NCBI GenBank assembly: GCA_045589295.1 | Contig: JAZNOU010000012.1 | Coordinates: 32,001-96,000, forward strand | Length of the DNA: 64,000 nt | Reading direction: 5' to 3' | Source: Clostridia bacterium | GTDB lineage: Bacteria > Bacillota > Clostridia > RGIG6154 | Shown: positions 12,158-61,283 of the stretch, in pieces | Numbering within the stretch: position 1 is the stretch's first letter | How the letters are laid out: every line of letters begins with the position of its first letter | Position numbers and translations under genes: made by a program | The notes under the pieces: model-generated | Databases searched by the model: none | Seen by the model: only the letters and a program-made list of their open reading frames with translations | What the model was told of the DNA's origin: nothing

Positions 12158-12344
12158 TTTAATACCTGCTTTCTAGTATGTTTTTTATTAAGAGGGTTTT
12201 GCTTTCTTCCCCTCTCTGTGATTTTATTATAGCATTTTGACAAAAAGGATGTGTCGTTATAATGGTAATTTTTAAACAATTTTAAAAAAGTTTTTAGAAT
12301 ATTTTTTAAGGGAAGCGGCAAGTACATATTTGCCGAATAGAAAG

Positions 12345-12418
12345 AAGGTTTTAAAATGATGTTTAAAAGATGTTAAATTGATGTTTGCATCTGGAATAAA
12401 AGTTATTTAAAAGATGAA
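12345..12418. repeat. 11-bp-period AAGATGTT-like array, inverted relative to 16-78
   Basis: Units at 12345, 12356, 12367, 12378, 12400, 12411. Confidence 0.7.
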
Positions 12419-12440
12419 TGAATCTGTATAGAAATATGTT

Positions 12441-12470
12441 TTGACAGAAGATATAACTTTGTGTTATAAT
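12441..12470 (+). promoter_or_regulatory. Outward-facing sigma-A promoter at the island end
   Basis: TTGACA-N18-TATAAT with TG extension. Confidence 0.65.
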
Positions 12471-12588
12471 GTGGGTAATGAATCACACTATTGATGGTGA
12501 TAACTATAAATTATTAATTGAAAAAGACTGTAATATCAAGGGTTGAATGTTCCGGCTTCCTTTCATCAAGACCACGAAGTGGGCTTGA

Positions 12589-12684
12589 TATGTTGAAATG
12601 ATGGGTCTCATTGGCGCTGGTAACAACCCAATGGTTGGTATGACTGTTGCAGTTGCAGTTGCTGTAGAAGAGGCTTCAAAATAA
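12589..12684 (+). pseudogene. Displaced 3' fragment of a GGGtGRT-family gene (island junction)
   Basis: Translates YVEMMGLIGAGNNPMVGMTVAVAVAVEEASK*, matching the recalled GGGtGRT C-terminus (..PAHVEMMGLIGAGNNPMVG..); in-frame stop directly upstream. Confidence 0.85.
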
Positions 12685-12710
12685 TTTAAGAATTATATTA
12701 TGATGATTTT

Positions 12711-12752
12711 ACGGGGGAAAACCGCATCGACAAAGAAAGCGGTTTCCCCCGT
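12711..12752 (+). terminator. Rho-independent terminator of the GGGtGRT gene
   Basis: CGGGGGAAAACCGC...GCGGTTTCCCCCG followed by T-run. Confidence 0.7.
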
Positions 12753-12776
12753 ACTCTTTTTTTAAATAATTTTGTA

Positions 12777-12807
12777 AAAAAAAGGCTGTTTTTTAGACAG
12801 CCTTTTT
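12777..12807 (-). terminator. Terminator of the barnase-barstar operon
   Basis: AAAAAGGCTGT-TTTTAG-ACAGCCTTTTT. Confidence 0.7.
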
Positions 12808-12821
12808 GATTTAAATTAAAC

Positions 12822-13106
12822 TCACTTATATACAATTATAACTTGTTTATTTAAATCTTGATACCATTCAATAGTATCATCGAAGGTTTCCTTGATATAA
12901 GGAAATTCATATGCAGGAATTCTTGGTAGATTATTACTTCCAATAACCGTAATATGAGCAGGTGCTTCCATATGTCCTGTAAGCATATCCCAGATGGCAT
13001 CGGGATTTTCTCCGCACCATTCGGGAAAGTCAAGCCCCTTGATAATTCTTTGATAAAAGGCTGATAAATCTGTCACATTTGTAAAGTCGATAGTGTAATA
13101 ATTCAT
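12822..13106 (-). CDS. Barstar-family RNase inhibitor (immunity protein)
   Basis: LDFPEWCGENPDAIWDMLTG aligns to barstar [20 protein letters not shown]. Confidence 0.92.
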   Translation of the reverse strand: MNYYTIDFTNVTDLSAFYQRIIKGLDFPEWCGENPDAIWDMLTGHMEAPAHITVIGSNNLPRIPAYEFPYIKETFDDTIEWYQDLNKQVIIVYK

Positions 13107-13115
13107 ATTTCCCTC

Positions 13116-13646
13116 CTAAATGATTTCATAAAAAGTGTTATAATGGTCATAGGTTACAAATAAGAGTCCGTCATTTGAATACAAAAGTCTGTGAGTATTT
13201 CTGAACCCACCTATATAATTTATATCCGCTTCATACCACACTCTTCCTGGTTTTTCGGGAAGTTTGTGCTTTCTGTCTCGAAATATGTCTCCGCCCATTG
13301 TTGCCCACGGAAGAACCGATCTTAAATTTCCTTTACGCTTGTCCCAACCGTGTTTTTCCGCATATTTTTTATCCACATAGTTTTTCGGTAATTCTCCATA
13401 CATTTTCAGCGACATATCTGCTCCTGAAAGTCCGTTTATTGTAGCAGTACCGCTATATATAGCGCCAAGAGGTGCTAAAGTGCAGCGACAATTAGGGTGC
13501 AAAGGGGGAGTAAATAAATCGTAAACTGCAAAAATTCTTAAATTAAGTTTAAGACATCTTTCGCATGTGGTAGGTGAAATTTTTACATACCAACAGTTCC
13601 AATTTTCACTTTTGGTTATTGCAGGATTTAGATTGTTATCACCCAA
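13116..13646 (-). CDS. Barnase-family RNase toxin fused to a short MuF (phage head morphogenesis) C-terminal motif
   Basis: TCERC and PPLHPNCRC (MuF signature), then GGDIF..KLPEKPGRVWYEADINY..GFRN.HRLLYSNDG....DHY with barnase catalytic Glu/Arg/Arg/His; no signal peptide; TTG start with AAAGGA RBS. Confidence 0.9.
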   Translation of the reverse strand: MGDNNLNPAITKSENWNCWYVKISPTTCERCLKLNLRIFAVYDLFTPPLHPNCRCTLAPLGAIYSGTATINGLSGADMSLKMYGELPKNYVDKKYAEKHGWDKRKGNLRSVLPWATMGGDIFRDRKHKLPEKPGRVWYEADINYIGGFRNTHRLLYSNDGLLFVTYDHYNTFYEII

Positions 13647-13697
13647 AATAGTATCGTTCCTTTCTTTTTTAAAGTAAATAACGTTATTTTAGGTGTG

Positions 13698-13732
13698 ATT
13701 ATAACATATAGGTAATGTGACATTCAAGGACA
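13698..13732 (-). promoter_or_regulatory. Phage late-type promoter: 20-bp activator box plus extended -10
   Basis: Minus strand TGTCCTTGAATGTCACATTA-CCTATA-TG-T-TATAAT; box identical to 47818-47837. Confidence 0.85.
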
Positions 13733-13874
13733 AGATTTATTTTATACTAATTACAGGTTTGCGTCAAGTAAAGAAAAAAGATTTGCAAGGTTACATGAAT
13801 TGAGCTATAATGTGTGGCAAATGACACGCAGATGATGTGGACAATGTCGGAGCAAACAGGGCTTTGGCTATGAG

Positions 13875-13902
13875 AAATACCCACTCGCAAGAGTGGGTAT
13901 TT
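13875..13902 (-). terminator. Hairpin, probably the original terminator downstream of ssrA
   Basis: AAATACCCACTC-GCAA-GAGTGGGTATTT just outside the att repeat. Confidence 0.6.
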
Positions 13903-13928
13903 TGAATGCAGCGTAGTTTGCTGCGACG

Positions 13929-13940
13929 TGGTGGAGATGA
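13929..13940. repeat. att direct repeat (displaced tmRNA 3' end)
   Basis: TGGTGGAGATGA identical to 25747-25758. Confidence 0.85.
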
Positions 13941-14257
13941 AATGTACTTTCACAGTTTCACTAACAAAACCCGTAAAGCCTATGAAACTCTATGGTGTCG
14001 GACAATTTCTACATACCATTTCACAACAGATTTTGACATCTGTTTCATCCTTCTCTCGACCGCCATTTGGTGTGTGCAAATTTTTTGGATTTTCTGTTGG
14101 TGGAAACCATCGAACACAGAGAGTTTCAAAACTGCATTTTCTTCATCACGAAAGCCATCTCTCTTTTTGCGATGGCTTTGTTTTATTAGTAATGTATATT
14201 AAACCTTTTTAAGATTACACTTAACAAAATAACCTAAAGTAAATCAGTAAATTTGAC

Positions 14258-14301
14258 TTTACATCATGATTTAAATATGATATAATTATAATTAAATCAT
14301 G
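14258..14301 (+). promoter_or_regulatory. Promoter with inverted-repeat operator flanking the -10
   Basis: TTTACA-N17-TATAAT; CATGATTTAA (14265-14274) ... TTAAATCATG (14292-14301). Confidence 0.6.
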
Positions 14302-14325
14302 GAATAAATTAAAAGGAGGATATTT

Positions 14326-47817: not shown

Positions 47818-47852
47818 TGTCCTTGAATGTCACATTATAGTAGTGGTATAAT
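47818..47852 (+). promoter_or_regulatory. Phage late-type promoter: 20-bp activator box plus extended -10
   Basis: TGTCCTTGAATGTCACATTA-TAGTAG-TG-G-TATAAT; box identical to 13713-13732 (minus). Confidence 0.88.
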
Positions 47853-47877
47853 GCGCCCAGTCGAAAGGAGAGGCGAT

Positions 47878-48057
47878 ATGCAAAATAAAGTTTTGAATAA
47901 GACCGAGATACTTTTTAACTTAAGCTTAATTGCAAAAGATGACGCAGTTGCACCTAATTACAGAATAAAAGCTTTGGAGCTTTTGGGTAAGGCAAAGGGG
48001 ATTTTTGAGAGCGACGAAAAGGTTTTGGGTACTGTTAAGATAGTGGATGATATTTAA
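47878..48057 (+). CDS. Terminase small subunit, truncated (oligomerisation part only)
   Basis: 59 aa; RIKALELLGK..GIF motif; RBS AAGGAG; N-terminal HTH absent. Confidence 0.75.
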   Translation: MQNKVLNKTEILFNLSLIAKDDAVAPNYRIKALELLGKAKGIFESDEKVLGTVKIVDDI

Positions 48058-49251
48058 GTGAATTTAAAAGATGCTGTAGCACCAAGCTTTTTTAGTGTTC
48101 ACGAAGCAATCAAAAAAGAAAAGTATACCCATTACTTTTTAAAAGGCGGAAGGGGTTCTGCCAAATCATCTTTTGTTTCTGTTGAAATTATTTTAGGTAT
48201 TATGAAAAACAAAAACGCTAATGCGGTGGTTTTAAGATGCGTTGCGTCTTCGCTCCGTGACAGCGTAATAGAACAGCTCAGCTGGGCGGCCGACCTGTTG
48301 GGCGTTTCGCATCTCTTTAAGACGACTTTTGCTCCTGCTGAAATGATTTTTTTACCGACGGGTCAGAAAATTATTTTCAAAGGGGCAGACGATGTTAAGA
48401 AAATCAAATCCACAAAGGTTAAAAACGGATACATAAGATATGTTTGGTTTGAAGAATGTGATGAATTTAAAAGCTACGACGATATTTTATCTGTTAACCA
48501 ATCTCTTTTACGAGGCGGTGAAAAGTTTGAAGTTTTTTACACTTTTAATCCGCCAAAAAATAAATCACATTGGATTAATTCGGTTAAGGGAAACAAAGAC
48601 ACGCTTTTTCATCACTCCACATACTTAAGCGTTCCATTTAAATGGCTTGGAAAACAGTTTTTTGAGGAAGCCGAAAGACTTAAAAATACTGATGAAGAAA
48701 GGTACCGGCATCAGTATTTAGGTGAATGTATTACTCCCAAGGAGCAGATTATTAAAAATTTTGAGGTTTTAGATGAATTACCTGAAACTGACATTAAGTT
48801 TTTAGGTCAGGATTTTGGGTTTAACCATGCAAATGCTATTTTGGAAGTGGGATTTACTGAAAACACTATTTACATTTACAAAGAGCATTATGTAAAGGGT
48901 ATGGACACTTCAGAGGTTATAAAAGATGCCGAAGGCATATTCAATAAAGACCTCATTATGTGGTGCGACAGTGCTGAGCCTGACAGGATTAAAATGTGGA
49001 AAAAGGCTGGATACAGAGCAGTACCTGTTTCAAAGGAGCGCGCATCTGTAAAAGCTCAGATTGATTTTCTTCTTTCCCATAAAATTGTTATTCATTCGTC
49101 CTGCGTTAACACTGTTAACGAAATAAACGGCTGGTGCTGGATGAAGGACAAGGCTACGGGTGAGTGCAGCGATGTGCCAAACCCAATAAATGACGATTTA
49201 ATGGCGGCGCTTCGCTACAGCATTGAATATTTAAGAAAGGCAGGATTTTGA
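48058..49251 (+). CDS. Terminase large subunit, PBSX family
   Basis: KGGRGSAKS, YVWFEE, TFNPP, GQDFGF, CDSAEP, DDLMAALRY. Confidence 0.95.
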   Translation: MNLKDAVAPSFFSVHEAIKKEKYTHYFLKGGRGSAKSSFVSVEIILGIMKNKNANAVVLRCVASSLRDSVIEQLSWAADLLGVSHLFKTTFAPAEMIFLPTGQKIIFKGADDVKKIKSTKVKNGYIRYVWFEECDEFKSYDDILSVNQSLLRGGEKFEVFYTFNPPKNKSHWINSVKGNKDTLFHHSTYLSVPFKWLGKQFFEEAERLKNTDEERYRHQYLGECITPKEQIIKNFEVLDELPETDIKFLGQDFGFNHANAILEVGFTENTIYIYKEHYVKGMDTSEVIKDAEGIFNKDLIMWCDSAEPDRIKMWKKAGYRAVPVSKERASVKAQIDFLLSHKIVIHSSCVNTVNEINGWCWMKDKATGECSDVPNPINDDLMAALRYSIEYLRKAGF

Positions 49252-49254
49252 TTT

Positions 49255-50532
49255 TTGAATATTTACTCAGTTTGCGATTATTTAGGCAAGAAGCTTGGAA
49301 TAAACATTCCTTGCGATTTTTATCAGAACGTAAAGCTCTGGCGTGACTGGTACAAGGGGTATTCAAAAGAGTTTCATCACTATACCGATTTTAACGGCAA
49401 AGAAACGGTGGAACTTGACAGGTACTCGCTTAAAATGGCAAAAAAAGTGTGCGAAGACTGGGCAAATCTGTTGTTTAACGAAAAGACTGTTGTTGCATCT
49501 GATAATGAAAAGGCGGACAAGCTTTTAAAAAGCATATTTTCTGCAAGCTCATTCCGCCAGGGAATGAACAATTTGGTTGAAAAGGCGTTTGCGCTTGGTA
49601 CAGGGGCGGCAGTTTTAAGGTTAAAGGGCAGTGAGATTTCGTTTGATTTCATAGGCGCAGAGTCAATTATTCCAATTTCGTACAAAGATGGCAATATTGA
49701 GGAAGTAGCCTTTGCAAGTGATTTTTATCATAGAGGCAAAAGGTACACTTACTTAGAGTGCCATTTAAAAGACAGTAACGGAAACTACGTTATTACAAAC
49801 GAGTATTTAGACGATTTGTTTGGTGTGGCTGAATTAGACACGGGGGTAATTAAAAGCTACAACACAAACTCTTGTATGCCGTGGTTCTCCATTATAAAGC
49901 CTAATATTGTAAACAATATTAACGATGTAACACCTCTCGGCATCTCGGTTTTTGCTAACGCGATTGACGTTTTAAAGGGACTTGACCTTGCGTATGACAA
50001 TCTTTGCACAGACTTTTTCTTAGGCGGGAAAATGATTATGATGAACGAAACGGTGATTGCAAAAGAAGAGGGCGGAAGAAGAATTCCTCCGCAGTTTTCA
50101 AGAAAGCGCCTTTTTATGTCAATGGGAGATTCTATTATTGACGGGAAAATGTATGAAGAATATAATCCTGCGCTCCGCGTTGACGAAAACACAAAGGGTA
50201 TTTTTACCCAGCTTTCGATTTTGGCCTCCATTTGCGGACTTGGTGAAAAGTTTTACTCTTTTTCAAACAATGAGGTTAAAACTGCAACTGAGGTTATGAG
50301 TGAAAACTCATCTCTTTTCAGATGTGTGAAAAAACACGAAATTATCATCGAAAATGCGCTTATTGCACTTGCAAAGGCGGTGCTTGATATTTTCAAAATT
50401 GATGCAAATGTTACAGTTATGTTTGATGACAGCATTATTGAAGACAAAAAGTCTGAAAGAGAGCAGGATTTTAAAGATGTAGAGGCAGGTCTTATGGAAA
50501 AGGAAAGTTACATCAGAAAGTATCACGCATAA
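49255..50532 (+). CDS. Phage portal protein (SPP1/A118-like)
   Basis: MAKKVCEDWANLLFNEK, PLGISVFANA, KTATEV, FDDSIIED. Confidence 0.92.
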   Translation: MNIYSVCDYLGKKLGINIPCDFYQNVKLWRDWYKGYSKEFHHYTDFNGKETVELDRYSLKMAKKVCEDWANLLFNEKTVVASDNEKADKLLKSIFSASSFRQGMNNLVEKAFALGTGAAVLRLKGSEISFDFIGAESIIPISYKDGNIEEVAFASDFYHRGKRYTYLECHLKDSNGNYVITNEYLDDLFGVAELDTGVIKSYNTNSCMPWFSIIKPNIVNNINDVTPLGISVFANAIDVLKGLDLAYDNLCTDFFLGGKMIMMNETVIAKEEGGRRIPPQFSRKRLFMSMGDSIIDGKMYEEYNPALRVDENTKGIFTQLSILASICGLGEKFYSFSNNEVKTATEVMSENSSLFRCVKKHEIIIENALIALAKAVLDIFKIDANVTVMFDDSIIEDKKSEREQDFKDVEAGLMEKESYIRKYHA

Positions 50533-50541
50533 GGAGAAAAA

Positions 50542-50970
50542 ATGGATTTTTTAAAAGAATTTTTAAGTGCTGAGCTTTTTGACTCTGTTAAAAAAGAGCT
50601 TGAGGGCAAAAATGTTAGCCTTATTAACAATTTCAGCGGTGAATATGCTCTAAAAAGCGAGCTTGAAGAACAAAGCAATAAAAAAATCAACGAAATTATG
50701 TTTGAAAATGCGCTCTCTAGCGCGCTTGAAAAAAGTGGAGTTAAAAGCGTTAAAGCGCTCAAAGGGTTTTTAGAGCCTGAAAAAATGAGTTTTGAAGACG
50801 GAGTTTTAAAGGGCTTTAATGAACAGATTACAAAAATAAAAAAAGAAAACGGATTTTTATTTAACGATTTTGGTATAACAGGGCATTCTCACAAAAGCGG
50901 GATGACTGATTTTAACTCAATGAGTGATGATGAATATTACCAGAGCGTTTTAAGAAAGGATGAATTTTAA
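50542..50970 (+). CDS. Capsid scaffolding protein (GP20-like)
   Basis: ALEKSGVKSVKALK, EQITKIKKENGFLF; position before capsid. Confidence 0.85.
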   Translation: MDFLKEFLSAELFDSVKKELEGKNVSLINNFSGEYALKSELEEQSNKKINEIMFENALSSALEKSGVKSVKALKGFLEPEKMSFEDGVLKGFNEQITKIKKENGFLFNDFGITGHSHKSGMTDFNSMSDDEYYQSVLRKDEF

Positions 50971-50972
50971 TT

Positions 50973-52082
50973 ATGGCAAATCAGCTTATTACTATTAAAG
51001 AAATTGCAAGGGCGGCTCTTCCGAGACTTATTGAAAATCTCGCGTTCCCGAACCTTGTTCACAAAGATTTTTCTAACGAGTTTGTTTCAGGTAAAGGTGA
51101 CAGAATTCAGGTAAGAAAGCCTGTTGTGTTATCTGCAGAAGAATTTGATGAAGCAAAAGGCACTTCTGTGCAGGATATTAACGAATCTTCTGTTGAAGTG
51201 GCACTCGACAAGCTTGCAACAGTTGATACAGAATTTTCTGCAATTGCTGCGGCAACTTCTATTGACGATATCAACAGAATTTTCATTGAGCCTGCGGCTG
51301 CGGCTCTTGCACAGAAAATCAACTCTGATGGTTTAGAACTTTATAAAGATATTCCTTATATTACAGGTGAAGCAGGCAAAACTCCGTCTTCCCTGGAAGA
51401 CATTGCGGCTGTAAGAAAGGCTTTAAATGACAAAAATGTTCCGATTACTCCGAGAGTTGCGGTATGGGACACTGAAGCAGACACCAAGTTTACAACTGTT
51501 GACGCTATTGTTCACGCTGACAAGTCAGGCAGAGTAAAAGCACTTCGCGATGGTTCAATCGGTAAGATTTTCGGACTTGAAAACTATATGTCTCAGGCCG
51601 TTAAAAAGCACAAGAGTGAATTGTCAGGCACTGCCCTTAAGATAAATGGTGCGACAGAAGAGGGGGCTACGACACTTTCTGTTACAGGAACAACTCTTAC
51701 AGGCAAGTTTGTAAAAGGCGACGTGCTTAAAATTGACGGCAAAACTTACACAGTTACTAAAGATTCAGATGAAGCGGCAAACAACACAATCGCTGAAGTT
51801 TGTGTTTACCCTGCTCTTGGCGCAGTGAAAGACAAAACAGAAATTACGTTAGTTGGAGACCACACAGCAAATCTTGCGTTTAATCCTATGGCGTTTGCTT
51901 TTGTAACACGTCCGCTTTCTGCTCCGTCAGGCGTTGAAAGCTATGTTACAAGCTACAACGGCATTACACTTCGTGTTGTTAAGGGATACGATATGAAGCA
52001 CAAAAAGGAAATGCTTTCTATGGACGTGCTTTACGGCTACAAAACTATGTATCCTGAGCTTGCAACAAGAGTTTTGGGCTAA
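50973..52082 (+). CDS. Major capsid protein (P22 coat-like)
   Basis: KGDRIQVRKP, ALAQKINSD, NLAFNPMAFAFVTRPL, SMDVLYGYK. Confidence 0.9.
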   Translation: MANQLITIKEIARAALPRLIENLAFPNLVHKDFSNEFVSGKGDRIQVRKPVVLSAEEFDEAKGTSVQDINESSVEVALDKLATVDTEFSAIAAATSIDDINRIFIEPAAAALAQKINSDGLELYKDIPYITGEAGKTPSSLEDIAAVRKALNDKNVPITPRVAVWDTEADTKFTTVDAIVHADKSGRVKALRDGSIGKIFGLENYMSQAVKKHKSELSGTALKINGATEEGATTLSVTGTTLTGKFVKGDVLKIDGKTYTVTKDSDEAANNTIAEVCVYPALGAVKDKTEITLVGDHTANLAFNPMAFAFVTRPLSAPSGVESYVTSYNGITLRVVKGYDMKHKKEMLSMDVLYGYKTMYPELATRVLG

Positions 52083-52103
52083 TCCTTTAAAGGAGGAGCT
52101 TGT

Positions 52104-52436
52104 ATGGATAAAGTAGGATTTGATTATTATCAGAACGTCTTTTTAGGCAGTGAGATTACTTCCAAAAAGGTGTTTGAAAAATTAGAGCGCTACGCACTTT
52201 CGTACGTTGATAAAATCACTTTCGGCAGAATTACTTATATGACCGAAAGCATTAAATGTGCGGTTTGCAGTGTGTGTGAGGCGCTTTTTAAAAGTAGTGA
52301 GCGAAGCGGCATTAAACACGAGGTAAATGACGGATATTCTGTGACTTATACCGATAAGGCAGAAAGCGAATTTTCTGATATTTATATGGCGGCGGCTGTG
52401 TTTTTGCCCGCGGAACTTCTTTACAAAGGTATTTAG
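52104..52436 (+). CDS. Head-tail connector (adaptor)
   Basis: FDYY..F.G, VDKITFGR, KCAVC, NDGYSVTY, LLYKG. Confidence 0.75.
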   Translation: MDKVGFDYYQNVFLGSEITSKKVFEKLERYALSYVDKITFGRITYMTESIKCAVCSVCEALFKSSERSGIKHEVNDGYSVTYTDKAESEFSDIYMAAAVFLPAELLYKGI

Positions 52437-52492
52437 CGGAAGGGGGCAATCCCTTTCATGCACAGATTATGAGTAAGGGGTGGATTTTTTAA

Positions 52493-52795
52493 ATGATATG
52501 CTGCGATAAATGTATTACGGTGTTTTCGTTTAACGGGAGGGCGTATGACAGTTTTGTTTTTGATGGTGTGAGTATTTTTGGTTCTGACGGGATTAAAGAA
52601 AATAATTCGGGGTTTGAAGAAAACAACAGCTTTAAAATAAGAATCCCGACAACTCAAAAGATTAGTGTTGCACCAGGTGACAGGGTTGTTTTCGGCATAA
52701 AAGATGCTTTTGATGCAGAAAATGCTTACACCGTTATGAGTGTTAAAGACAACACCAGGGGTGTAAATAAGCACTTTTTAATTGAAATTAAATAA
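52493..52795 (+). CDS. Head-closure-like protein (DUF6751-like)
   Basis: ITVF, IRIP, GDRVVFG, VKDNTRG..H; position. Confidence 0.65.
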   Translation: MICCDKCITVFSFNGRAYDSFVFDGVSIFGSDGIKENNSGFEENNSFKIRIPTTQKISVAPGDRVVFGIKDAFDAENAYTVMSVKDNTRGVNKHFLIEIK

Positions 52796-52880
52796 TTTTT
52801 TGTGGGTTGGAGTATCGAAAAGGCAAGTTGTGTTTTAAGGTGGGAGAAAACACAGAATTTAAAAAGAAAGAGGGATTGAT

Positions 52881-53270
52881 TTGATAGATAAAATTCAGGA
52901 ATTTTTGCTCGGTTTCGGGCATTTCAATATAGATTATTTATCGGGAAAGATTAACGGAATGAGTGTGTATCAGGATAATTTTAATCCCGTCAAAAAGCCG
53001 TATTCCGGCGGCGGCGGACTTTACAGGTATTCCTTTTTTGTTGAAATCACAAGCCCTTATGCTGCCGATTTAAATGCAGGCAACCATATGGTGGTTGACG
53101 AGCTTATTGATTTCATAGAAAGAAAAAATTTAAAAAGGCAGCTTCCTGAACTTAAACAGGGGTTAAAGGCGCAGTCTATAAAGGTAATACAAAATTTCGG
53201 GCGTGTGAATACTGCAGTAAACAAGGCAAATTTCAGGCTAAAGCTTGAACTTTTGTACACAAAGGGGTGA
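52881..53270 (+). CDS. Tail-terminator-like protein
   Basis: IDYL, KKPYSGGG, LPEL, RLKLELLY; precedes tail tube. Confidence 0.65.
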   Translation: MIDKIQEFLLGFGHFNIDYLSGKINGMSVYQDNFNPVKKPYSGGGGLYRYSFFVEITSPYAADLNAGNHMVVDELIDFIERKNLKRQLPELKQGLKAQSIKVIQNFGRVNTAVNKANFRLKLELLYTKG

Positions 53271-53287
53271 TATCTTTGGATTTAATT

Positions 53288-53770
53288 ATGCTATCTGAAA
53301 ATCTAGCGGCATTTATGGAAATTGATGGTAAGTTTTATAAAATGCAAGGTTTTTCAAAGCTGGATATTCTTTCTGTGCCTGAGGTTTATGCAAGAAAATA
53401 CATAAACAACGACTTTAAAAGTGTAACAGTTACTGGCGGTGACACAAAAATTTCATACGCTTTTGACAGAATGAAAAATTTTAAGGTTCATGACGTTTTA
53501 TCACGTATTGCAGACCTTAATTTGAGCGGTGACGAGGCGACAGTAAAAATTGTTTTGGTCGATTTTGACAATGAACAAGACGGAAAGTTTTATGCTATTA
53601 AGCAAAGCTTTGCAGTTGTGTGCAAAGATGTTCGGCCTGAGGATGGTTTTTTAGATTATTTTGGTATGTTTATTTCTTCGGGTAAGGCATCAGAGGGGGC
53701 TGTTACCTCCTGTGATGGTTTTGAAACTGCTGATTTTACAGAGAAAAGGAGGGGAATATTATGCGATTGA
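53288..53770 (+). CDS. Major tail tube protein-like
   Basis: AAFME..FYKMQGFSKL..PEVYARKYI..ISYAFD; start uncertain (53267 or 53288). Confidence 0.65.
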   Translation: MLSENLAAFMEIDGKFYKMQGFSKLDILSVPEVYARKYINNDFKSVTVTGGDTKISYAFDRMKNFKVHDVLSRIADLNLSGDEATVKIVLVDFDNEQDGKFYAIKQSFAVVCKDVRPEDGFLDYFGMFISSGKASEGAVTSCDGFETADFTEKRRGILCD

Positions 53771-54600
53771 TTTTTGAAAGCGACGGCAAAAAACTTGAAA
53801 TGGGTGACGATTGCGACGCCTCTGTTATTGAAATCTCGGGGCTTGGTACGCCTGAAAGGCAATACAACACCAAAAGGTATGTAAATATTCCAGGACAGGT
53901 TACTGTTTCTTCGCACGTGCTTGCAAGAAATATTGTAATTAAGGGTGATATATGTTTAAACGGAGGGTTGCCGACAGAAAAATATCACACTTTTTTCTGT
54001 CAAAGCGGAATGCTTACCATAACAGGAAAAGATAAAAAGAACATTAATTACAATCCTGTTTCTTTTAAGACGGGCAATAGAAATGGCGAGTTTGTTTCTT
54101 TTGAGCTTAAATTAGTTTGCGATTTTCCTTACTTTTCTGACGGCAATGACATTCCGTATGAGATATACAAAAGATTAGATATGGTAACAGGTAAGTTTAG
54201 TTTACCTAAAGTTTTTACCAAAAGAGTTACTGAGGTGGATATCTACAATTCGGGACAGGCAGACTCTGAACCTGTTATAACCATTGGATGTACAAATCAG
54301 GGTATTTACTCAGGCGGCATTGTGATTTACAATGCGCTTACAAAAAAAGAACTTAAGCTGGATACCAATCTTTCTTTAGGTGAAACGATTACAATTGATA
54401 TAAAAAACAGAAAAATCTCGAGTAATAAGAGAGCAAACTGCTACGGAATTTTAAATGAGAATTGTGTTTTGTCTGATTTTGTGATTGCAAGGGGAATAAA
54501 TCATATTTTACTTACAAACTTAAACGACGGAGAAACAGTTACAGCATCAATTTTGTTTAATAATTTATATGCGGAGGCGGAGATTGTTGAAAGAAATTAA
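53761..54600 (+). CDS. Distal tail protein (Dit)
   Basis: ISGLG, ARNIVIKG, LVCDFPYF, IYNSG, GINHI. Confidence 0.85.
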   Translation: MRLIFESDGKKLEMGDDCDASVIEISGLGTPERQYNTKRYVNIPGQVTVSSHVLARNIVIKGDICLNGGLPTEKYHTFFCQSGMLTITGKDKKNINYNPVSFKTGNRNGEFVSFELKLVCDFPYFSDGNDIPYEIYKRLDMVTGKFSLPKVFTKRVTEVDIYNSGQADSEPVITIGCTNQGIYSGGIVIYNALTKKELKLDTNLSLGETITIDIKNRKISSNKRANCYGILNENCVLSDFVIARGINHILLTNLNDGETVTASILFNNLYAEAEIVERN

Positions 54601-55726
54601 AATTTATGATTTTGACTTTAACCTGATTGCTTCCGAGTTTAAGTGCGTTTCATTTAAGTGGGATGTAAGATTTAATTCAATTGGCGGCTTCGAGGGGGTA
54701 TTTACCCTTGATTCTGACATTTATTCTACGTGTGCAAACAAGGATTTTTTGGTTTGCGTTCAAGGCGAAAATCAGGGAATTGTAACCTCTGTGAGAATTG
54801 AAAACGACCAGATTATAATTAGCGGGAAGTCTTTAAACTTTTTGCTTGAAAAAAGGGTTTGTCTACCTTTTTCAACTAAAGATAGCGGTATTTTAAAATC
54901 TGCTCCCGAGCTTGTGTGCGAGTTGGTTTTAAAGTATTGCGGTGATTTTATGGAGGTTTTAAGTGCACCACAAGGATACGATAAATCGCATTTTACCAGG
55001 ATTGAAGCAAAGCCTCTTTGCGAGATTGTAACAGATTTGCTAAGCGGTGTTAATCTTGGACATTTTGTTAAGTTTGACATAAAAAACAAAAAGTGGATAT
55101 TTGGCATAATAGAGCCTGAAGTAAAAAACATTGTGCTTTCAGAACCTGACAAAACCCTTTCTGATTGCGATTATGTAAGATATTTGTCAGACTATGCTGC
55201 GTCAGGCGTTTATCAGCAAAAAGTATATTATCAGGGCTTGTGGAATGCTGAGACAAACACTCCTTTTTTGTGGGACAATGAAAAACCCAATTTTGCAAAA
55301 GCTTACAAGGTGGAAGAGGCCGGTCAGATGTTTGGCATAAGTTTTGACAAGGGTGATTACATTATTTGCAAGGATGAAAGCGGTAAGTGGCAAAAAAGTG
55401 CAGATTGCTTACCTTTTTGGTACAAGGTTACACCTAAAAACGCAAATGGAGCTAAACTTTGGGAGTGCGCTTTATCCTGCGATGATATTTCAGAGGCTTA
55501 CGAATTGACACTTTTAAGAGAAATAAGCGAAAATGTGGTAGCACTTACCGAGGGTGAGGTTAAAAACGAGTTTAAAGTGGGCGATATAATAAAAATTCAG
55601 CTTGGCAGAGGCGATGCTCTAAAGGTTTTTACAAAGCAGGTTAAAAGAATGGTGCATCACAGCGACGCTGAGGAAAGTTTTGTAAGACCTACATTCTATA
55701 AGTTAAAGGAGAGGGAAGATGAGTAA
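54587..55726 (+). CDS. Baseplate hub / Gp37-like tail protein
   Basis: IKIYDFDFN, FNSIGGFE, ISGKSLNFLLEKRV, FKVGDII; after Dit. Confidence 0.75.
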   Translation: MKEIKIYDFDFNLIASEFKCVSFKWDVRFNSIGGFEGVFTLDSDIYSTCANKDFLVCVQGENQGIVTSVRIENDQIIISGKSLNFLLEKRVCLPFSTKDSGILKSAPELVCELVLKYCGDFMEVLSAPQGYDKSHFTRIEAKPLCEIVTDLLSGVNLGHFVKFDIKNKKWIFGIIEPEVKNIVLSEPDKTLSDCDYVRYLSDYAASGVYQQKVYYQGLWNAETNTPFLWDNEKPNFAKAYKVEEAGQMFGISFDKGDYIICKDESGKWQKSADCLPFWYKVTPKNANGAKLWECALSCDDISEAYELTLLREISENVVALTEGEVKNEFKVGDIIKIQLGRGDALKVFTKQVKRMVHHSDAEESFVRPTFYKLKEREDE

Positions 55727-56573
55727 TTATAAATATACTTTTTTTGATAATCAGACGGTTGGCGTTGACCATTTGAACGAAATTACAAAGAGGCTTGTGT
55801 CAGGGGGGATTTCTGCAGTTTACAGCGGAGTAGATTTTAATGTTGCAGACATTAATGATAACAATAAGGCGATTTTAACAGGCGGTGTTGTACCTGGAAA
55901 TGATTTGAATTTAAAGGTAACGGCGGTAGGAAGCGGAAAGTACCTTATAAATCAGGGACTTTGCTTTTTTAACAACGGCACTACTATGGAGATTTTATCG
56001 GGCGGAGAAGAAATTGTTGTACCGCAAGGGGTAACAAGCTACATTTATTTGGTGTCCGACAGCAATAAAATGGCGTGTTATGTCGAAGTTTTGCAAAGTG
56101 AAAAGCAGACGGGTGAATTTATTCTTCTGGCTGTTATAAATGTTGACGGGACAGTTGTCGATAAACGCACCTATGCGAAAGGTAAAGTTCCCGGGTTTTA
56201 TGCGTCTTCCGAGAGCATGCAGGTAAATATTACCCAAAAATATGAGGGAGAAAAAAATATAGAAATTTCGGTTGGTATGGGCAATTTTAAGCATCTTTGT
56301 ATCAGGGCAGAGTCAGGCGCTTTTCATAATGGTTCTGGGTATAACATTAATTACGGGGGACTTTTTTATTGTGATTTTGAAAACTCAGTTGCGGTAAATC
56401 CTTCTATGTGTTCCGTGCTTGCAGGCGATAGTTATATTTATTATGACAGAAACATTGGCTCCTGCCGTCTTGGGTCTAATATTAGATTGGAAAACGGAAA
56501 GCTCATTATACCTGTGATAGAGGGTAATGTAAATAAGGGGTATGAAGTACGGTTTTCATATCATTTATGGTAA
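55719..56573 (+). CDS. Baseplate structural protein
   Basis: FFDNQ, GV, LKVTA..G, G.CFFNNG; position. Confidence 0.65.
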   Translation: MSNYKYTFFDNQTVGVDHLNEITKRLVSGGISAVYSGVDFNVADINDNNKAILTGGVVPGNDLNLKVTAVGSGKYLINQGLCFFNNGTTMEILSGGEEIVVPQGVTSYIYLVSDSNKMACYVEVLQSEKQTGEFILLAVINVDGTVVDKRTYAKGKVPGFYASSESMQVNITQKYEGEKNIEISVGMGNFKHLCIRAESGAFHNGSGYNINYGGLFYCDFENSVAVNPSMCSVLAGDSYIYYDRNIGSCRLGSNIRLENGKLIIPVIEGNVNKGYEVRFSYHLW

Positions 56574-56585
56574 GGAGGAGTTTAG

Positions 56586-59411
56586 ATGAAGAGAAAAATT
56601 ATTCCAAAACAAAAATATACAACCTATGCTTCGTTTCCGCTTGTGTCTGGCGACGTAAGGGCATACGAGATAGAGCTTGATTTAGGTGAAAATGTTTCGG
56701 GGGCGGAGTTTAAGGTAGTTGCAATCCGCGCTGACGGCAAGGCTATTGAGGATTTGGGAACAGTTGAAAACGGAATCGCAAGATATACTTTATCAAACAG
56801 TATGTACGCCGTACAGGGTGAGCTTACTGTAAGATTGCAGATACTTCATAATTCAAGTGTTTTAACTGATAGGGAAATTATTTTTGAGGTTAAAAAAGGT
56901 GCGACTGATACTACAGCGGCACAAACTGTTATGCCTCTTAACGACAGTGTGATTTTAAGAGTTTCTGCATTTGAAGATAAGCTTTTAAGCAAGGTTGACA
57001 AACAAGCGGGCATGGGACTTTCGACAAATGATTTTTCGGACCAGTACAAGCAAAAACTTGATAACTTAGATGAAACTATGGGAGCAGAAATAGAGCAAAT
57101 ATCAGAAACGATTGATAATTTGTCAGATAGTTTTGATGAACACACAAAAGACAAAGCAAACCCCCACAATGTTACGGCGCAGCAGGTTGGTGCATATTCA
57201 AAATCTGAAACAGATAACAAGCTTTATAAAAAAGCGGATAAATCAGATATTTCTAATATATACTCATATCAAGGCTCAGTTGATACTTTTGAGGATATTG
57301 AGTGTATCAGCATAACGCTTGTCCCCAATGGCGAGCCTACTTGCAAAGGACAAGTATGCGGGTCGTTTAATGAAGATGATGGGTGTGTGACTATCGATGA
57401 GATAGCAGAAGAAGATTTTGATACAATTATTATTCCAATAAAAGAGGTAACGCTTAAAAAGGGGTATTATGCTATATCAAGCGAGCTGAGAGATGGTATG
57501 TATAAGTCAGGAATTGCAATTGATATTTACCAAATGGATGAATTTAATGTGCAGGAAGGATATGTTTTCAAAGTCGAAAATGACACGGTTATAAATCTGG
57601 CTCATATATTCAGACATAGTGATTCACTATTTGGTGGTTGCACAGGAGATGTTGTATGCACACTTACCAAAATGCCAAATATACTTGTAGATGAATCCAG
57701 CTATAACGAACAATATGGAACTTGTGAAGCGTATGGCATTTCTCCGTCAAACGGCTCAGTATACAACGTCTTAGACACGGGTATAAACTATGCTTGGAAT
57801 GGTACTGAATGGGACGCTTTAGGCGGTGAGCATAAGGATTTAGAGGCTAGAGAAGAAATTAAAAAACTGTCTGATAGTTTGGACTGTATTGATATTAGTG
57901 ATAATAACATTTCGTTTAACAGAGATAAAAACACAGTCGGCATAATAAAAGAGATTGGTAGTTTCACCTGTACTGCGATTGATGAAAGTACAAACAAATA
58001 CACCTTTGATGTTGCTGACACGTCAGTTTTTGTTTCATACACCGAGTACAAGGTTACGGTAGATGATACTGACTATCTTATAAGGTCAACAACAATAAAC
58101 GAAGATAACGTTGTGTTTGAAGCGGTTGATGATGCAGTTCCTTTTGAGGTTGGAAATACATACAACATAAGATTTGAGACAAAAAATGCAACCTCTTTTG
58201 GTGTGGATAATACAGTTTTGGCAAATGAGGGCTTTGCAACAGGTATGGCTAATTTCATTGATGAAACTGGCGACCAAGGTGTTGCTCACGGATACGGCAA
58301 TAAGCTCTCAGGAAAGGCACATTTTGTTGCAGGTTCATCAAATGATGTTTCAGAAGGCAGTACTGATACAATATTTGGCAGTAACAACATTGTCAAAGGC
58401 AGTAACAAACTTGTTGCAGGTCTAAACCTGCTTGCGGAATTAACTGCTTCGGGAAGTGCTGTATTAGGAAAATACAACATTGATGTAAAAGATGCTTTGC
58501 TTATAGTTGGTATCGGATATGATAAAAACCACAGACAAAATGCTTTGGTTATGGACAAAAACGGCAATATTGTAGCTTATGGTACTCTTACTGTGGATAA
58601 TAATGTAAGTATTAACGGAGAGCTAAATGTTTGCAATAAAGCTGTTATGTCTAAGGGGTTAGAGGTTAACGGTGAAACTACGATTGATGGCAGTACAAAT
58701 ATTAAAGGAGCAATGGCATATAAAGAGTCTGAGGTTGTGAACCTAGAAATGTTATCCAAACATACAGGTATCGATATTGGCAGAAAAGGTGCAGGTTATA
58801 TGTCTGTCGTGTTTAATCACGACGGTAATGAAGGAAGCGGGTATGCTTCGTTTACTGCAGGCACAAGTAACAAAACAACTGCAGGACAGGCAGCAACCTT
58901 TGGGCACGCAAATGAAAATAGCGGTTTTTCTGCTTTTACTGCAGGCTCGGGCAATATAACTACAAAAGACCAAGGTGCTACGTTTGGCTATTCAAATGAA
59001 AATCACGGATGGGCTTCTTTCATAGCCGGTGCTTTTAACAAAATAAAAGGAGCTTTTAACGCCTGTATTGCTTTAGGTAGGGATATATTAATAAATGCAG
59101 ATAACGCTATTGGTATTGGAAGAGGACTTAATGTTGATAAGGCTAACCAAGTAGTTGTTGGTGCATATAACAAGTCTGATAATGAATCTGTGTTTATAGC
59201 AGGCTGTGGTACGGATGATAAAAACCGCAAGAACGCAATAACTGTAAGAGAATCTGACGGACGTACCAAAATCCATAATGGGCTTGATGTAGAAGGTTTA
59301 ATAAACGGTGTGGATTTACAAGAACTTAAAACGCAAATGGGTGACATTAACACTGCACTTGAAGCCATTATCGAAATTGACAATAAACTGATTGGCGGTG
59401 ATGGTGAATGA
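56586..59411 (+). CDS. BppU-like N-terminus plus tail fibre/receptor-binding protein with YadA-like head repeats
   Basis: KVDKQAGMGLSTNDF, NPHNVTAQQVG, WDALGG, repeated SFTAG.N/ATFG.N, V.GxYN...GxG..RxNA. Confidence 0.8.
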   Translation: MKRKIIPKQKYTTYASFPLVSGDVRAYEIELDLGENVSGAEFKVVAIRADGKAIEDLGTVENGIARYTLSNSMYAVQGELTVRLQILHNSSVLTDREIIFEVKKGATDTTAAQTVMPLNDSVILRVSAFEDKLLSKVDKQAGMGLSTNDFSDQYKQKLDNLDETMGAEIEQISETIDNLSDSFDEHTKDKANPHNVTAQQVGAYSKSETDNKLYKKADKSDISNIYSYQGSVDTFEDIECISITLVPNGEPTCKGQVCGSFNEDDGCVTIDEIAEEDFDTIIIPIKEVTLKKGYYAISSELRDGMYKSGIAIDIYQMDEFNVQEGYVFKVENDTVINLAHIFRHSDSLFGGCTGDVVCTLTKMPNILVDESSYNEQYGTCEAYGISPSNGSVYNVLDTGINYAWNGTEWDALGGEHKDLEAREEIKKLSDSLDCIDISDNNISFNRDKNTVGIIKEIGSFTCTAIDESTNKYTFDVADTSVFVSYTEYKVTVDDTDYLIRSTTINEDNVVFEAVDDAVPFEVGNTYNIRFETKNATSFGVDNTVLANEGFATGMANFIDETGDQGVAHGYGNKLSGKAHFVAGSSNDVSEGSTDTIFGSNNIVKGSNKLVAGLNLLAELTASGSAVLGKYNIDVKDALLIVGIGYDKNHRQNALVMDKNGNIVAYGTLTVDNNVSINGELNVCNKAVMSKGLEVNGETTIDGSTNIKGAMAYKESEVVNLEMLSKHTGIDIGRKGAGYMSVVFNHDGNEGSGYASFTAGTSNKTTAGQAATFGHANENSGFSAFTAGSGNITTKDQGATFGYSNENHGWASFIAGAFNKIKGAFNACIALGRDILINADNAIGIGRGLNVDKANQVVVGAYNKSDNESVFIAGCGTDDKNRKNAITVRESDGRTKIHNGLDVEGLINGVDLQELKTQMGDINTALEAIIEIDNKLIGGDGE

Positions 59412-60571
59412 GTAACAGTATAGAGCAAAACCTTGTGACTATTGCTGAAAACCGACAAAAGATTTATGATGCAGGGAGAAATGCCGTTATAAACGAACTG
59501 AAGGAACTGCAAAAAGGCACTGCAAATGGTGAAGTTGTTGCCATTTCTGATATATCACCTATCCCACATAATATTGATGTTAAAGTATCAAGCAAAAATA
59601 TAGTTAATGCTGATGTTTTATGTGGCAAACAATTTACTAAAAATGATGATGGAAGTTATACCTTTACTATGGGTAGTGGCGGTAATAGATTTACTGCAAT
59701 GGCTAATATATTTATTCCAAAAGGCTCAAAAGTTGTGTTTTCTATAACTGGTTTTGAGAGTGATAATATTGCTTTGGTTGGTATTCAAACACTTTATGCT
59801 AATGGCACTTATTTAAGTAGTTATGATGTAAAGCCTGGATATTTATCAAACAAAGCAATTAAAACAGAAGATGATATAGTAGGCTTGCGCTTATATCTTA
59901 ATCAAGGCACTGCTGAAGGAGCAACAGTAAAACTAACTGGTATTCAATTGGAATATGGCACAGTAGCAACCGCTTATACACCTTATGTAGATGTAAGCAC
60001 AGTTAAGTTAGATGCTCTTGGGAAAAATCTGTGGGATGCAGACTTAAATAAAATAGCACCAGTGCAATATACATCTGCGACAAGCGGTGGAATGGCAAAA
60101 AGAAATGGTTGGGAAATGGAATTGGTTGCAGGTGTTACATACACAGTAAAAGCAACACCAAAAGAAAGCAGTTTTACAGAAAGTTATTTGTACGGATGTG
60201 TAACTGATAAGGATGATAAAGTTAAAAAGACTACACCTTTAGTAGCAAATCAACAGTTACAAACTCACACATTTACAGCAGAAGATGGTTGGAAATTAAA
60301 GCTGTATGACGGGATTGCGCAAAACGGACTTACAGATACTAAGACAATGGTGTCAAAATTTAATATTCAGCTTGAAATCGGTGAAAAAGCAACACCTTAT
60401 GAACCACATATCCAGCCTGTAACATATATACCGAATGCAGACGGAGCTATAGAGGGGGTAAAGAGTGTTTGCCCTAATATGACTCTTTTAACTAATACTG
60501 AAGGAGTAATGATTGAGTGCAACTATAAGAAAGACATAAACCCGATTTTTGATAAATATGTGAGAGATTAG
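59408..60571 (+). CDS. Tail-associated protein with duplicated carbohydrate-binding-like modules
   Basis: Two KNL/KNI...QLExG.xAT.Y.P modules. Confidence 0.7.
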   Translation: MSNSIEQNLVTIAENRQKIYDAGRNAVINELKELQKGTANGEVVAISDISPIPHNIDVKVSSKNIVNADVLCGKQFTKNDDGSYTFTMGSGGNRFTAMANIFIPKGSKVVFSITGFESDNIALVGIQTLYANGTYLSSYDVKPGYLSNKAIKTEDDIVGLRLYLNQGTAEGATVKLTGIQLEYGTVATAYTPYVDVSTVKLDALGKNLWDADLNKIAPVQYTSATSGGMAKRNGWEMELVAGVTYTVKATPKESSFTESYLYGCVTDKDDKVKKTTPLVANQQLQTHTFTAEDGWKLKLYDGIAQNGLTDTKTMVSKFNIQLEIGEKATPYEPHIQPVTYIPNADGAIEGVKSVCPNMTLLTNTEGVMIECNYKKDINPIFDKYVRD

Positions 60572-60581
60572 GAGTGATTTT

Positions 60582-61283
60582 ATGAGAATCTGTGTAGATG
60601 CAGGGCATAATTATGATGGGTTTGACACAGGAGCAATTGGCAACGGCTTAAAAGAACAGAATGTTACATTTGAAATTGCAGACAAACTTAAAACCCTTTT
60701 AACCAAAGAAGGTATCGGCGTTACAATGACAAGAGCAAAACTTACTGACAATGTTGGGGTTAATGCAAAAGACAGCATAAATCAAAGGGTGAGAATTGCC
60801 AATACTACAAGATGCGACTATTTTATATCAATTCACTGTAATTCAAGCACAAACAAAGGTGCAAACGGAACCGAAACGCTTATCTACGGGTTTGGTGGAC
60901 AAGCTGAGAGAATAGCAAAAGCGGTAAATGCGAGTATTGTATCAGAGTTAGGTACTTATGACAGAGGTGTTAAAGTAAGAACTGATTTGGGCGTTTTAAG
61001 GGATACTTCAATGCCTGCAATTTTGGTTGAAACGGCTTTTATTTCAAATGAGAAAGATGCTAAACTTTTAAAAGAAAAAACAGATGATTTTGCACAAGCA
61101 ATTTTTGAGGGGATTTTAGAGCATTTGGACAAGAAAGAAGAAGTTGATATCATTGAAAGACTTTCAGAAATTATTGAAATTAATGATAAAACAACTGCAA
61201 AGGCTCAGCTTTTGAAAGAAAAAGAAAAAAATTCAAGTCTGTATTGGATTTTATACAAAATTGCAAACAAGGAGGGGACATAA
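60582..61283 (+). CDS. N-acetylmuramoyl-L-alanine amidase (Amidase_3 endolysin)
   Basis: DAGH, LKE, ISIHCN, ILVETAFISN. Confidence 0.93.
   Translation: MRICVDAGHNYDGFDTGAIGNGLKEQNVTFEIADKLKTLLTKEGIGVTMTRAKLTDNVGVNAKDSINQRVRIANTTRCDYFISIHCNSSTNKGANGTETLIYGFGGQAERIAKAVNASIVSELGTYDRGVKVRTDLGVLRDTSMPAILVETAFISNEKDAKLLKEKTDDFAQAIFEGILEHLDKKEEVDIIERLSEIIEINDKTTAKAQLLKEKEKNSSLYWILYKIANKEGT

Follow-up and report, generated by a model that had tools for sequence, protein, structure and literature searches.

We analyzed a two-gene locus in a 64,000-nucleotide (nt) stretch of DNA from a Clostridia bacterium (assembly GCA_045589295.1, contig JAZNOU010000012.1, positions 32,001 to 96,000), the whole of which is referred to below as the window. 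The locus encodes a toxin, in which a small Cys/His domain of phage origin (N-domain) is fused to a ribonuclease (RNase) of the barnase family, and a barstar immunity protein, whose gene follows the toxin gene after 9 nt (13107-13115). Coordinates of these and related features are given in Table 1.

Table 1. Features of the toxin-immunity cassette and of a candidate partner element in the window
Feature	Position	Strand	Description
Toxin gene (putative mini-MuF zinc domain fused to barnase)	13116..13646	(-)	open reading frame (ORF), 176 amino acids (aa), TTG start
N-domain	residues 1-67, 13446..13646	(-)	Cys/His residues C28, C31, H50, C53 and C55; homologue of the C-terminal end of MuF
Barnase domain	residues 68-176, 13119..13445	(-)	catalytic E139, R149, R153 and H168
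Barstar immunity gene	12822..13106	(-)	94 aa; PF01337, 58.9 bits vs cut-off 23.4, E=5e-16
Promoter-like site	13698..13727	(-)	TTGAAT-18-TATAAT with TG; about 50 nt 5' of toxin start; consensus match only
Hairpin	12779..12807	both	13-bp stem with T/A runs on both sides; just past the barstar stop (terminator scan)
Unit of promoter, toxin and barstar	12824..13779	(-)	about 960 bp; common with relative L001, where it lies at another chromosomal site
Head-tail-lysis cluster without MuF or integrase	47827..61283	(+)	between holA and rpsO; candidate partner through a putative link

Toxin and barstar

The translation of the toxin contains the motifs C28-x2-C31, PPLHPNCRC (47-55), WYEAD (137-141), GFRN (147-150), HRL (152-154) and DHY (167-169), and a ribosome-binding AGGA lies about 9 nt 5' of its start codon. 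The C-terminal part matched the Pfam Ribonuclease family (PF00545) with 41 bits (E=2.9e-10; cut-off 24), and a phmmer search against PDB sequences aligned residues 68-175 with residues 2-109 of the 110 of mature barnase (E=3e-31). E139, H168, R149 and R153 line up with barnase residues in the PDB alignment; following established knowledge of barnase, we take E139 and H168 to be the catalytic Glu and His, and R149 and R153 to be the phosphate-binding Arg residues. PF00545 was matched by all 83 family members that we aligned, and S13, W19, C28, C31, H50, C53, C55, E139, R149, R153 and H168 were invariant in this alignment, which is far beyond chance. An AlphaFold2 model of the whole toxin, built from the 83-row alignment, had a predicted local distance difference test (pLDDT) score of 93.5 and a predicted template modeling (pTM) score of 0.88, and packed the N-domain and barnase as one rigid unit. 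The barnase domain is complete and its catalytic residues are intact, and the toxin is predicted to have RNase activity.

Barnase of Bacillus amyloliquefaciens is exported by means of a signal peptide and a propeptide. The present toxin resembles it in the complete fold and catalytic set, in the inhibitor gene directly downstream and in the order of the genes, toxin first. However, the export leader is replaced by the Cys/His domain. Residues 1-30 contain no hydrophobic stretch (the N-terminus was read by eye, without a predictor) and, since a folded domain stands in place of the leader, Sec-dependent export is not expected. A preliminary description of this DNA, made from the letters alone, had noted a 176-aa protein with CxxC and PPLHPNCRC early in the chain and a barnase domain retaining the catalytic Glu, Arg and His, no signal peptide, and barstar 9 bp downstream; translation, alignments and the PF00545 score, obtained by the profile check it had proposed for the RNase part, bear out each of these observations.

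The barstar protein matched PF01337 only and has no DNA-binding domain. It probably inhibits the adjacent RNase and neutralizes the toxin in the producer cell. PADLOC contains no model that matches toxin or barstar. Twenty DNA sequencing runs contain part of the window, and no RNA run was listed.

The promoter-like site and the hairpin (Table 1) enclose the two genes, and the hairpin is likely a bidirectional terminator. A blastn comparison with locus L001 of a relative (9869-10823) gave 82% identity over 957 nt; homology is limited by the barstar stop and by a point 133 nt 5' of the toxin start codon, and the promoter-like site falls within this conserved block. No Rfam family came near its gathering score over positions 12200-14600. 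In our reading, toxin and immunity gene form a self-sufficient cassette that brings along its own promoter and terminator. It differs from type II toxin-antitoxin systems, which have a DNA-binding antitoxin, usually encoded first, whereas here the toxin comes first and the inhibitor is a PF01337 protein only.

The N-domain and the end of MuF

Residues 19-57 of the toxin aligned with positions 69-111 of the 112 positions of Phage_Mu_F (PF04233), with 20.5 bits (cut-off 29.6), and the toxin matched positions 63-108 of the 109 of NCBIfam TIGR01641, the SPP1 gp7 domain, with 28.3 bits (cut-off 39.65). Both scores lie below the curated cut-offs for the whole domain. Five PHROG families of minor head or head morphogenesis proteins matched residues ~13-60 (best, phrog_115, E=1.1e-7), one of these alignments extending to residue 103. 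PF04233 was matched at E<=1e-3 by 32 of the 83 family members (best 4.3e-7), and several N-domain relatives exceeded its cut-off, with up to 40.2 bits (30.8 bits in genome G012). In 76 N-domains from genome loci, the same seven N-domain residues and G66 were invariant at a mean column identity of 39%.

Structural comparisons point in the same direction. The N-domain modeled alone with AlphaFold2 had a pLDDT of 87.4, and at least 29 of the 50 listed rows of a Foldseek search against BFVD viral models bear MuF-type names (minor capsid, head morphogenesis, GpF-like or MuF-like). Many rows aligned about 46-50 residues with a root-mean-square deviation of 1.2-2.5 A; none reached E<=1e-3 because the match is so short. 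Against solved structures, this model had 0 Foldseek hits at E<=1e-3 and a best Z of 2.3 in the wide VIA-align search, but this lack of a solved relative is no proof of a new fold. ESM Atlas returned MuF-fragment clusters only, with scores of 0.86-0.87, below the counting level. A word-based search with residues 1-66 alone, a short and therefore little informative query, retrieved the toxin itself and one close relative only.

On these alignments, we accept the N-domain as homologous to the end of MuF (its last ~45 positions) and not as a member of the whole-domain MuF family. The earlier assignment of the N-terminus to MuF is supported for these positions only; for the whole domain, the Pfam and NCBIfam scores are too low. 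The N-domain is a real, folded and conserved unit, and probably binds zinc.

Family size, architecture and host range

The toxin family is large. A word-indexed search gave 580 candidate protein clusters, at least 551 of which, with proteins of 96-308 aa, matched at E<=1e-3; nearly all of the 120 listed were 170-205 aa long and contained PF00545. Three source-named clusters among these 120 are called 'phage head morphogenesis protein', an annotation label that is misleading for this toxin. When contigs from one genome per species were searched, at least 566 of 599 candidate stretches encoded a toxin relative. Nearly all of the 80 loci kept from these are labeled Clostridia or Bacillota (Oscillospiraceae, Acutalibacteraceae, Ruminococcus, Faecousia and others); one (L072) comes from a metagenome-assembled genome titled 'uncultured Holosporaceae bacterium'. 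Of 399 genomes scored in a sample spanning the class, 55 matched the toxin at E<=1e-10. About 20 (~5%) carry an intact two-domain gene, defined as a match over both domains in an open frame of at least 170 aa, as judged from the rows; the remaining matches were barnase with other N-termini, or fragments.

We also searched 1.84 billion representative sequences with a profile of the N-domain and found 4,171 proteins at E<=1e-3, 196 of them at E<=1e-10. The best 149 new relatives were 58-205 aa long in all but one case. Barnase followed the N-domain in 66, 51 were too short past the motif, 21 had a longer tail with no barnase hit and 11 had a damaged motif; Pfam analysis of 27 of the last 32 gave PF04233 in 24 and nothing in three. 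No toxin domain other than barnase was seen on the N-domain in the best 149 of the 4,171 relatives. Since the N-domain was found only with barnase, the family is not polymorphic, and the check proposed in the preliminary description, for relatives with other toxin domains on this N-terminus, yielded none; the N-domain does not behave as a polymorphic trafficking module. Two proteins showed unusual arrangements: P0222 (366 aa) combines a SAP domain with two MuF end-motifs and lacks barnase, and P0123 has two tandem N-domains ahead of the start of barnase.

In these sequences, the short architecture is the norm and not a one-off truncation. A truncated-pseudogene reading was rejected because the short form is conserved. 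It is likewise extremely improbable that the toxin is a non-functional leftover of a full-length MuF-barnase phage toxin whose N-terminal part was lost. The presence of only the MuF domain end, and the broken state of a second copy in the genome (see below), would agree with such an origin. However, the same short form occurs in at least 566 species, its metal ligands and catalytic residues are invariant at a mean identity of ~39-48%, and the gene has its own promoter, ribosome-binding site and terminator. Moreover, no long MuF-barnase was found among proteins of 309-2000 aa, although this is a weak test (231 candidates; the single hit was a PT-HINT-barnase protein).

Genomic neighborhoods and mobility

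ORFs were called in 84 loci and the window and clustered by BLASTP; the toxin was present in 83 of these sources. Barstar was its sole conserved neighbor and occurred in 70 of these 83; several loci are cut short by the edge of the contig. Pfam scans of 324 neighboring proteins of at least 110 aa, located within four ORFs upstream and five downstream (105+120+99), revealed mostly housekeeping genes; 11 ORFs of viral contigs L081 and L082 were covered by PHROGs rather than Pfam. About 74 of the 80 genome loci are placed among such genes or in small islands. Phage hallmark genes occur near the pair in L005, L008, L062 (Phage_Gp15) and L066, and perhaps in L063 and L069. L066, where a P22-type portal directly follows a toxin-barstar-barstar array, is the only one of the 80 genome loci in which a portal adjoins the pair. 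Genes of mobile elements were found near the pair in L012 (a relaxase and two integrases), L015, L033, L035 (TraG) and L040.

The cassette is mobile, as its insertion sites differ even between congeneric genomes. In L001, it adjoins hydF and lies near bSEFIR and Schlafen/AlbA_2 genes, and hydF of the window (36836-38014) has no cassette. The pair in the window lies in an island of recombinase and restriction-modification genes 34 kb from the head-tail cluster. This copy is not carried by a temperate phage or prophage, in agreement with its first description as lying outside any prophage.

Several features accompany the cassette. A gene for a hydrophobic peptide of 28 codons (12598-12684, plus strand), with a promoter that matches the consensus in 12 of 12 positions (12441-12470) and a hairpin terminator after it, converges on barstar. 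It has a second copy on contig C12 of the same genome (30850-30933), and such a gene also adjoins the cassette in L001 and flanks it on both sides in L031. On the other side, the segment 13798-13908 (plus strand) has a 71-nt block 94% identical to L001 11166-11236; a promoter-like site lies at 13782-13811 and a hairpin resembling a terminator at 13883-13898. This segment is a candidate small RNA of ~90 nt, with a fold z-score of -4.9 and no Rfam match. It is located upstream of the cassette in the window, and downstream of the cassette and the peptide gene in L001; the order looks circularly permuted between the two.

A type II restriction-modification pair (14559-16901) beside the cassette consists of a 530-aa M.Eco57I-like methyltransferase (PADLOC MTase_II, E=2.8e-96) and a convergent 242-aa endonuclease (REase_II, E=2.7e-14). 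The 17-kb stretch that holds the cassette also contains a resolvase, two large serine recombinases, a D5-type primase and a Mor-like regulator, and lies next to smpB and the transfer-messenger RNA gene (25747-26095). Positions 17052-25333, with the two recombinases, the primase (D5_N/DUF5906), a DUF1643 protein and the Mor-like activator, may represent one or two integrated elements of the satellite or island type. Elsewhere, L033 (10-5019) holds a serine recombinase, a 124-aa ORF, a HipA kinase, toxin and barstar against a C-terminal fragment of spoVAD, as if an element had inserted into this gene; the cassette adjoins spoVAD in L025 and L032 as well. Other large or repeat-containing proteins of the window include a surface protein of 1849 aa with CUB, BspA-type LRR, Big_2 and cadherin-like domains (2990-8539, plus strand) and a 248-aa ORF with an RHS repeat (30370-31116, plus strand).

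Barstar copies and decayed toxins

Barstar genes are doubled in L019, L030, L061, L066 and L073. A second toxin copy in the same genome (C12 2290-2756, ~29 kb before the start of the window; L087 1194-2038) is broken: the HPNCRC region and the frame are lost, leaving a barnase-only ORF of 95 aa beside an intact 94-aa barstar. This copy adjoins adh_short and DAGK genes, the same context as that of L002 in a relative. Barstar is also kept beside toxin remnants of 40-50 residues in genomes G006 and G007. Orphan barstars were found in G008 (one) and G015 (three), neither of which has a barnase-domain match, and all barnase-domain matches within the order belong to the mini-MuF family.

Immunity genes that are orphaned or multiplied typically mark exchanged toxins, and are unexpected for a purely internal enzyme. 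Decayed toxins with intact barstars, together with orphan and doubled barstars, therefore suggest a toxin that reaches other cells, and the order of toxin and then immunity gene points the same way.

These patterns bear on the possibility that the protein is a cytoplasmic RNase restrained by barstar and with a cellular role, for example in RNA turnover during stress or sporulation, in which a MuF-like zinc ribbon was recruited as a nucleic-acid-binding module that sets substrate choice. The N-domain is exclusive to barnase, and the two domains co-vary as one unit; in addition, SPP1 gp7 is called a DNA-binding protein in the title of a reference listed in PMC6316719, and most loci lie among housekeeping genes. 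Nevertheless, we consider such a role very unlikely: the position of the gene varies within a genus, a match occurs in only six of the 18 genomes of the order, and frequent pseudogenes and duplications, as well as orphan barstars, do not fit the pattern of a housekeeping gene.

A head-tail element without MuF

The cluster at 47827..61283 encodes, according to Pfam and PHROGs, a small TerS-like protein, TerL and an SPP1-type portal, then directly a scaffold and a P22-like coat protein, followed by an adaptor, a tail completion protein, Dit, a Gp37-like protein, large tail proteins and an amidase. Apart from the toxin, nothing in the 1.54-Mb genome (97% complete) matched MuF. Of the 18 genomes in the order, 14 carry a single copy of this element's portal; identities are 78-87% for members of the same genus and 57-61% for those of other genera. 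In the congeneric genome G005 the element is syntenic and its coat (92% identity) and portal (87%) are as conserved as housekeeping neighbors such as holA (87%), so the element looks vertically inherited, like a domesticated element of the gene transfer agent (GTA) type. It lacks MuF across the order; full MuF matches were limited to ORFs (554 and 569 aa) that lie elsewhere in the genomes of G004 and G009.

A minority of pairs are located in late or lysis regions of phage or phage-like clusters. At the end of the homologous element in G003 (the genome of L005), an endolysin gene is followed by the toxin (4-nt overlap), barstar and a holin. In G198, of another family and with a portal of 41% identity, the order is endolysin, overlapping toxin, barstar and then htpG. 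The overlap in both genomes implies late co-expression rather than expression in the lysogenic state. One ORF separates an endolysin from the pair in L008; L083/L084 have endolysin, a holin-like ORF, a truncated toxin and barstar; in L082 the pair follows an amidase and an internal virion protein; and in L081 it lies between tail genes on the opposite strand. L066, described above, is a further copy in such a region.

We then compared the occurrence of toxin and portal in the class-wide sample, counting this portal type at 300 bits or more. It was present in eight of the 20 genomes with an intact toxin and in 26 of the 379 others (odds ratio 9, Fisher p=7e-5, uncorrected for phylogeny). With the bacterium's own family left out, it occurred in 4 of 16 and 17 of 367, respectively (p=0.008).

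The lysis-gene context might also mean that the RNase, as free toxin or as a complex, is simply released at lysis and degrades RNA outside the cell, as a nutrient source or a bacteriocin-like agent, with the zinc domain stabilizing the enzyme or binding RNA. No secretion signal is visible by eye at the N-terminus, the pair recurs beside endolysin or holin genes (G003/L005, G198, L008 and L083/L084), the order of toxin, immunity and lysis genes is reminiscent of nuclease colicin operons, and N-domain and barnase are packed rigidly together in the model. However, most copies are far from lysis genes, neither a receptor-binding nor a translocation domain for entry into target cells is present, orphan immunity genes would serve no purpose if the enzyme never entered cells, and it would not be explained why the added domain should come from a phage protein of the head interior; we regard release of this kind as quite unlikely. 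Shutdown of the producer cell at lysis, an alternative offered in the preliminary description, fits poorly, in that barstar is always co-encoded.

It is also unlikely, in our view, that the cassette is an intracellular defense or addiction module, in which barstar would keep the toxin bound inside the cell, the MuF domain would serve as a decoy or sensor of phage portal or head proteins, or as an assembly poison, and the unleashed RNase would abort infection. In favor of such a module, the unit is self-contained and has its own promoter, is patchily distributed and frequently decays. The copy in the window adjoins the type II restriction-modification pair, that in L001 adjoins bSEFIR and Schlafen/AlbA_2 genes, some copies travel with HipA or recombinases (L033, L040), and a position after lysis genes is the classic site of prophage morons. 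On the other hand, neighbors are mostly housekeeping and not defense genes, the toxin precedes its inhibitor, and barstar has no DNA-binding domain. Barstar is a very tight and stable inhibitor, so there is no obvious trigger for release of the RNase. Orphan and doubled barstars better match incoming toxins, and the endolysin overlap in G003 and G198 implies late co-expression.

Comparison with known systems

Domain fusions of MuF to toxins have been described previously. Zhang et al. 2012 (PMC3482391) give MuF as a trafficking mode of Tox-Barnase, accompanied by Imm-Barstar, and describe simple barnase-barstar gene pairs as widely distributed. In Jamet et al. 2017 (PMC5576092), MuF toxins are defined by a full MuF domain that is extended at its C-terminus by at least 100 aa, a location in the head module of temperate phages and a small downstream ORF; the word barnase occurs 0 times in the main text of that article. 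MuF fusions are proposed to be head-loaded toxins in PMC6316719 and PMC5576092, and are treated as head-packaged effectors by Iyer et al. 2017 and 2022. According to PMC6316719, SPP1 gp7 enters the procapsid by binding to the portal and is dispensable for assembly. In the full-text literature searched, we found neither a minimal MuF tag nor an orphan MuF-barnase cassette described, although supplementary tables of Jamet et al. 2017 and Zhang et al. 2012 may list members.

The present family shares with MuF polymorphic toxins an N-terminus that derives from MuF, a toxin domain of 100 aa or more at the C-terminus (109 aa of barnase here) and a small immunity gene directly downstream (the 94-aa barstar), as well as hosts among Firmicutes and the proposed head loading and injection. 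Unlike these toxins, it shows no variety of toxin domains on the N-domain, and forms a free 1-kb cassette that is not beside a portal or head module and is mostly outside prophages. With SPP1 gp7, the prototype MuF minor head protein, it has in common the C-terminal Cys/His motif region (TIGR01641 positions 63-108), whereas gp7 itself is ~300 aa long and has no toxin, and its gene immediately follows that of the portal. The likeness to nuclease colicin operons, whose nuclease toxin is paired with a tightly binding inhibitor from a downstream gene, extends in some relatives to a lysis gene beside the pair (G003). However, receptor-binding and translocation domains are absent, and these lysis genes belong to the phage-like element.

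Possible delivery in phage-like particles

We tentatively propose, with somewhat less than even confidence, that the toxin is loaded in trans into the heads of phage-like particles and delivered to other cells, where barstar decides survival. The toxin would be made in the cytoplasm, its MuF-derived putative zinc sub-domain of ~65 residues taking the place of a secretion signal. This remnant would dock it inside the heads of assembling particles, as whole MuF/gp7 does via the portal. The candidate carrier in this genome is the MuF-less element at 47.8-61.3 kb; in other hosts, any phage whose portal is compatible could take this part. Ejection together with the DNA would bring the toxin into neighboring cells; those with barstar would survive and those without it would lose their RNA. 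The strongest support for loading into heads comes from the MuF origin of the N-domain, the copies in late operons and the orphan barstars.

Several observations weigh against this proposal. The MuF polymorphic toxins, for which head loading was put forward, have a whole MuF domain and several hundred residues, whereas the present toxin keeps the last ~45 of 112 positions in a protein of 176 aa. In about 74 of the 80 genome loci there is no phage gene within 4-5 ORFs of the pair, and only four relatives were confirmed, among 38 candidate stretches, in 2.9 million viral contigs. The portal type is absent from 12 of the 20 genomes with an intact toxin in the class-wide sample, and the p-values of the co-occurrence overstate it because the genomes are related. 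Within the order, the toxin is missing from eight of the 14 genomes that bear the element, and only six of the 18 have a match. The element in the window and in its congener lacks two genes that precede Dit in other genera (174-177 aa and 380-499 aa), probably those for the chaperone and the tape measure. With a gene like the latter missing, the element may not build a normal tail. To judge by the relatives sequenced, the N-domain is coupled to barnase alone; this exclusiveness and the rigid two-domain model give the strongest support to the idea that it is an accessory domain of the RNase, and the model would also fit a role in binding RNA or substrate. A complex prediction for two copies of the window portal and the N-domain scored 0.00 in both runs (mark 0.32), which is evidence neither for nor against docking.

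The preliminary description had suggested that the Cys/His motif alone might act as a capsid-loading tag and that the toxin would thus be a minimal effector for the particle encoded at 47.9-61.5 kb. Circumstantial evidence, namely the endolysin-linked copies in G003 and G198 and the co-occurrence with the portal, speaks for a link with the particle; the toxin genomes without the portal type and the elements without toxin speak against it. Overall, the observations in that description are confirmed, and its interpretation is partly supported.

We are more doubtful about the wider form of the proposed delivery, in which the ~65-residue Cys/His end of MuF would by itself be a portable head-loading signal. 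A mobile, chromosomal barnase-barstar cassette would use it to travel in trans, both in the GTA-like particle of gut Clostridia, which lacks MuF and is inherited vertically, and in any phage whose portal is compatible.

Implications

Independent of how the toxin acts, our analysis describes a very common and so far unnamed toxin-immunity cassette of gut and rumen Clostridia, with relatives in at least 566 species. If delivery by phage-like particles is true, such particles would be contact-independent devices for toxin delivery, and barstar would be a community-wide immunity currency. If the MuF remnant indeed directs the toxin to capsids, effector genes could act in trans from any position in the genome. 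The smallest part of MuF proteins that suffices for head loading would then be defined, at a time when packaging of MuF toxins is still an open point, and could serve as a small tag by which cargo is brought into phage heads. Finally, a function would be assigned to a phage-like element that is conserved across an order of gut Clostridia.

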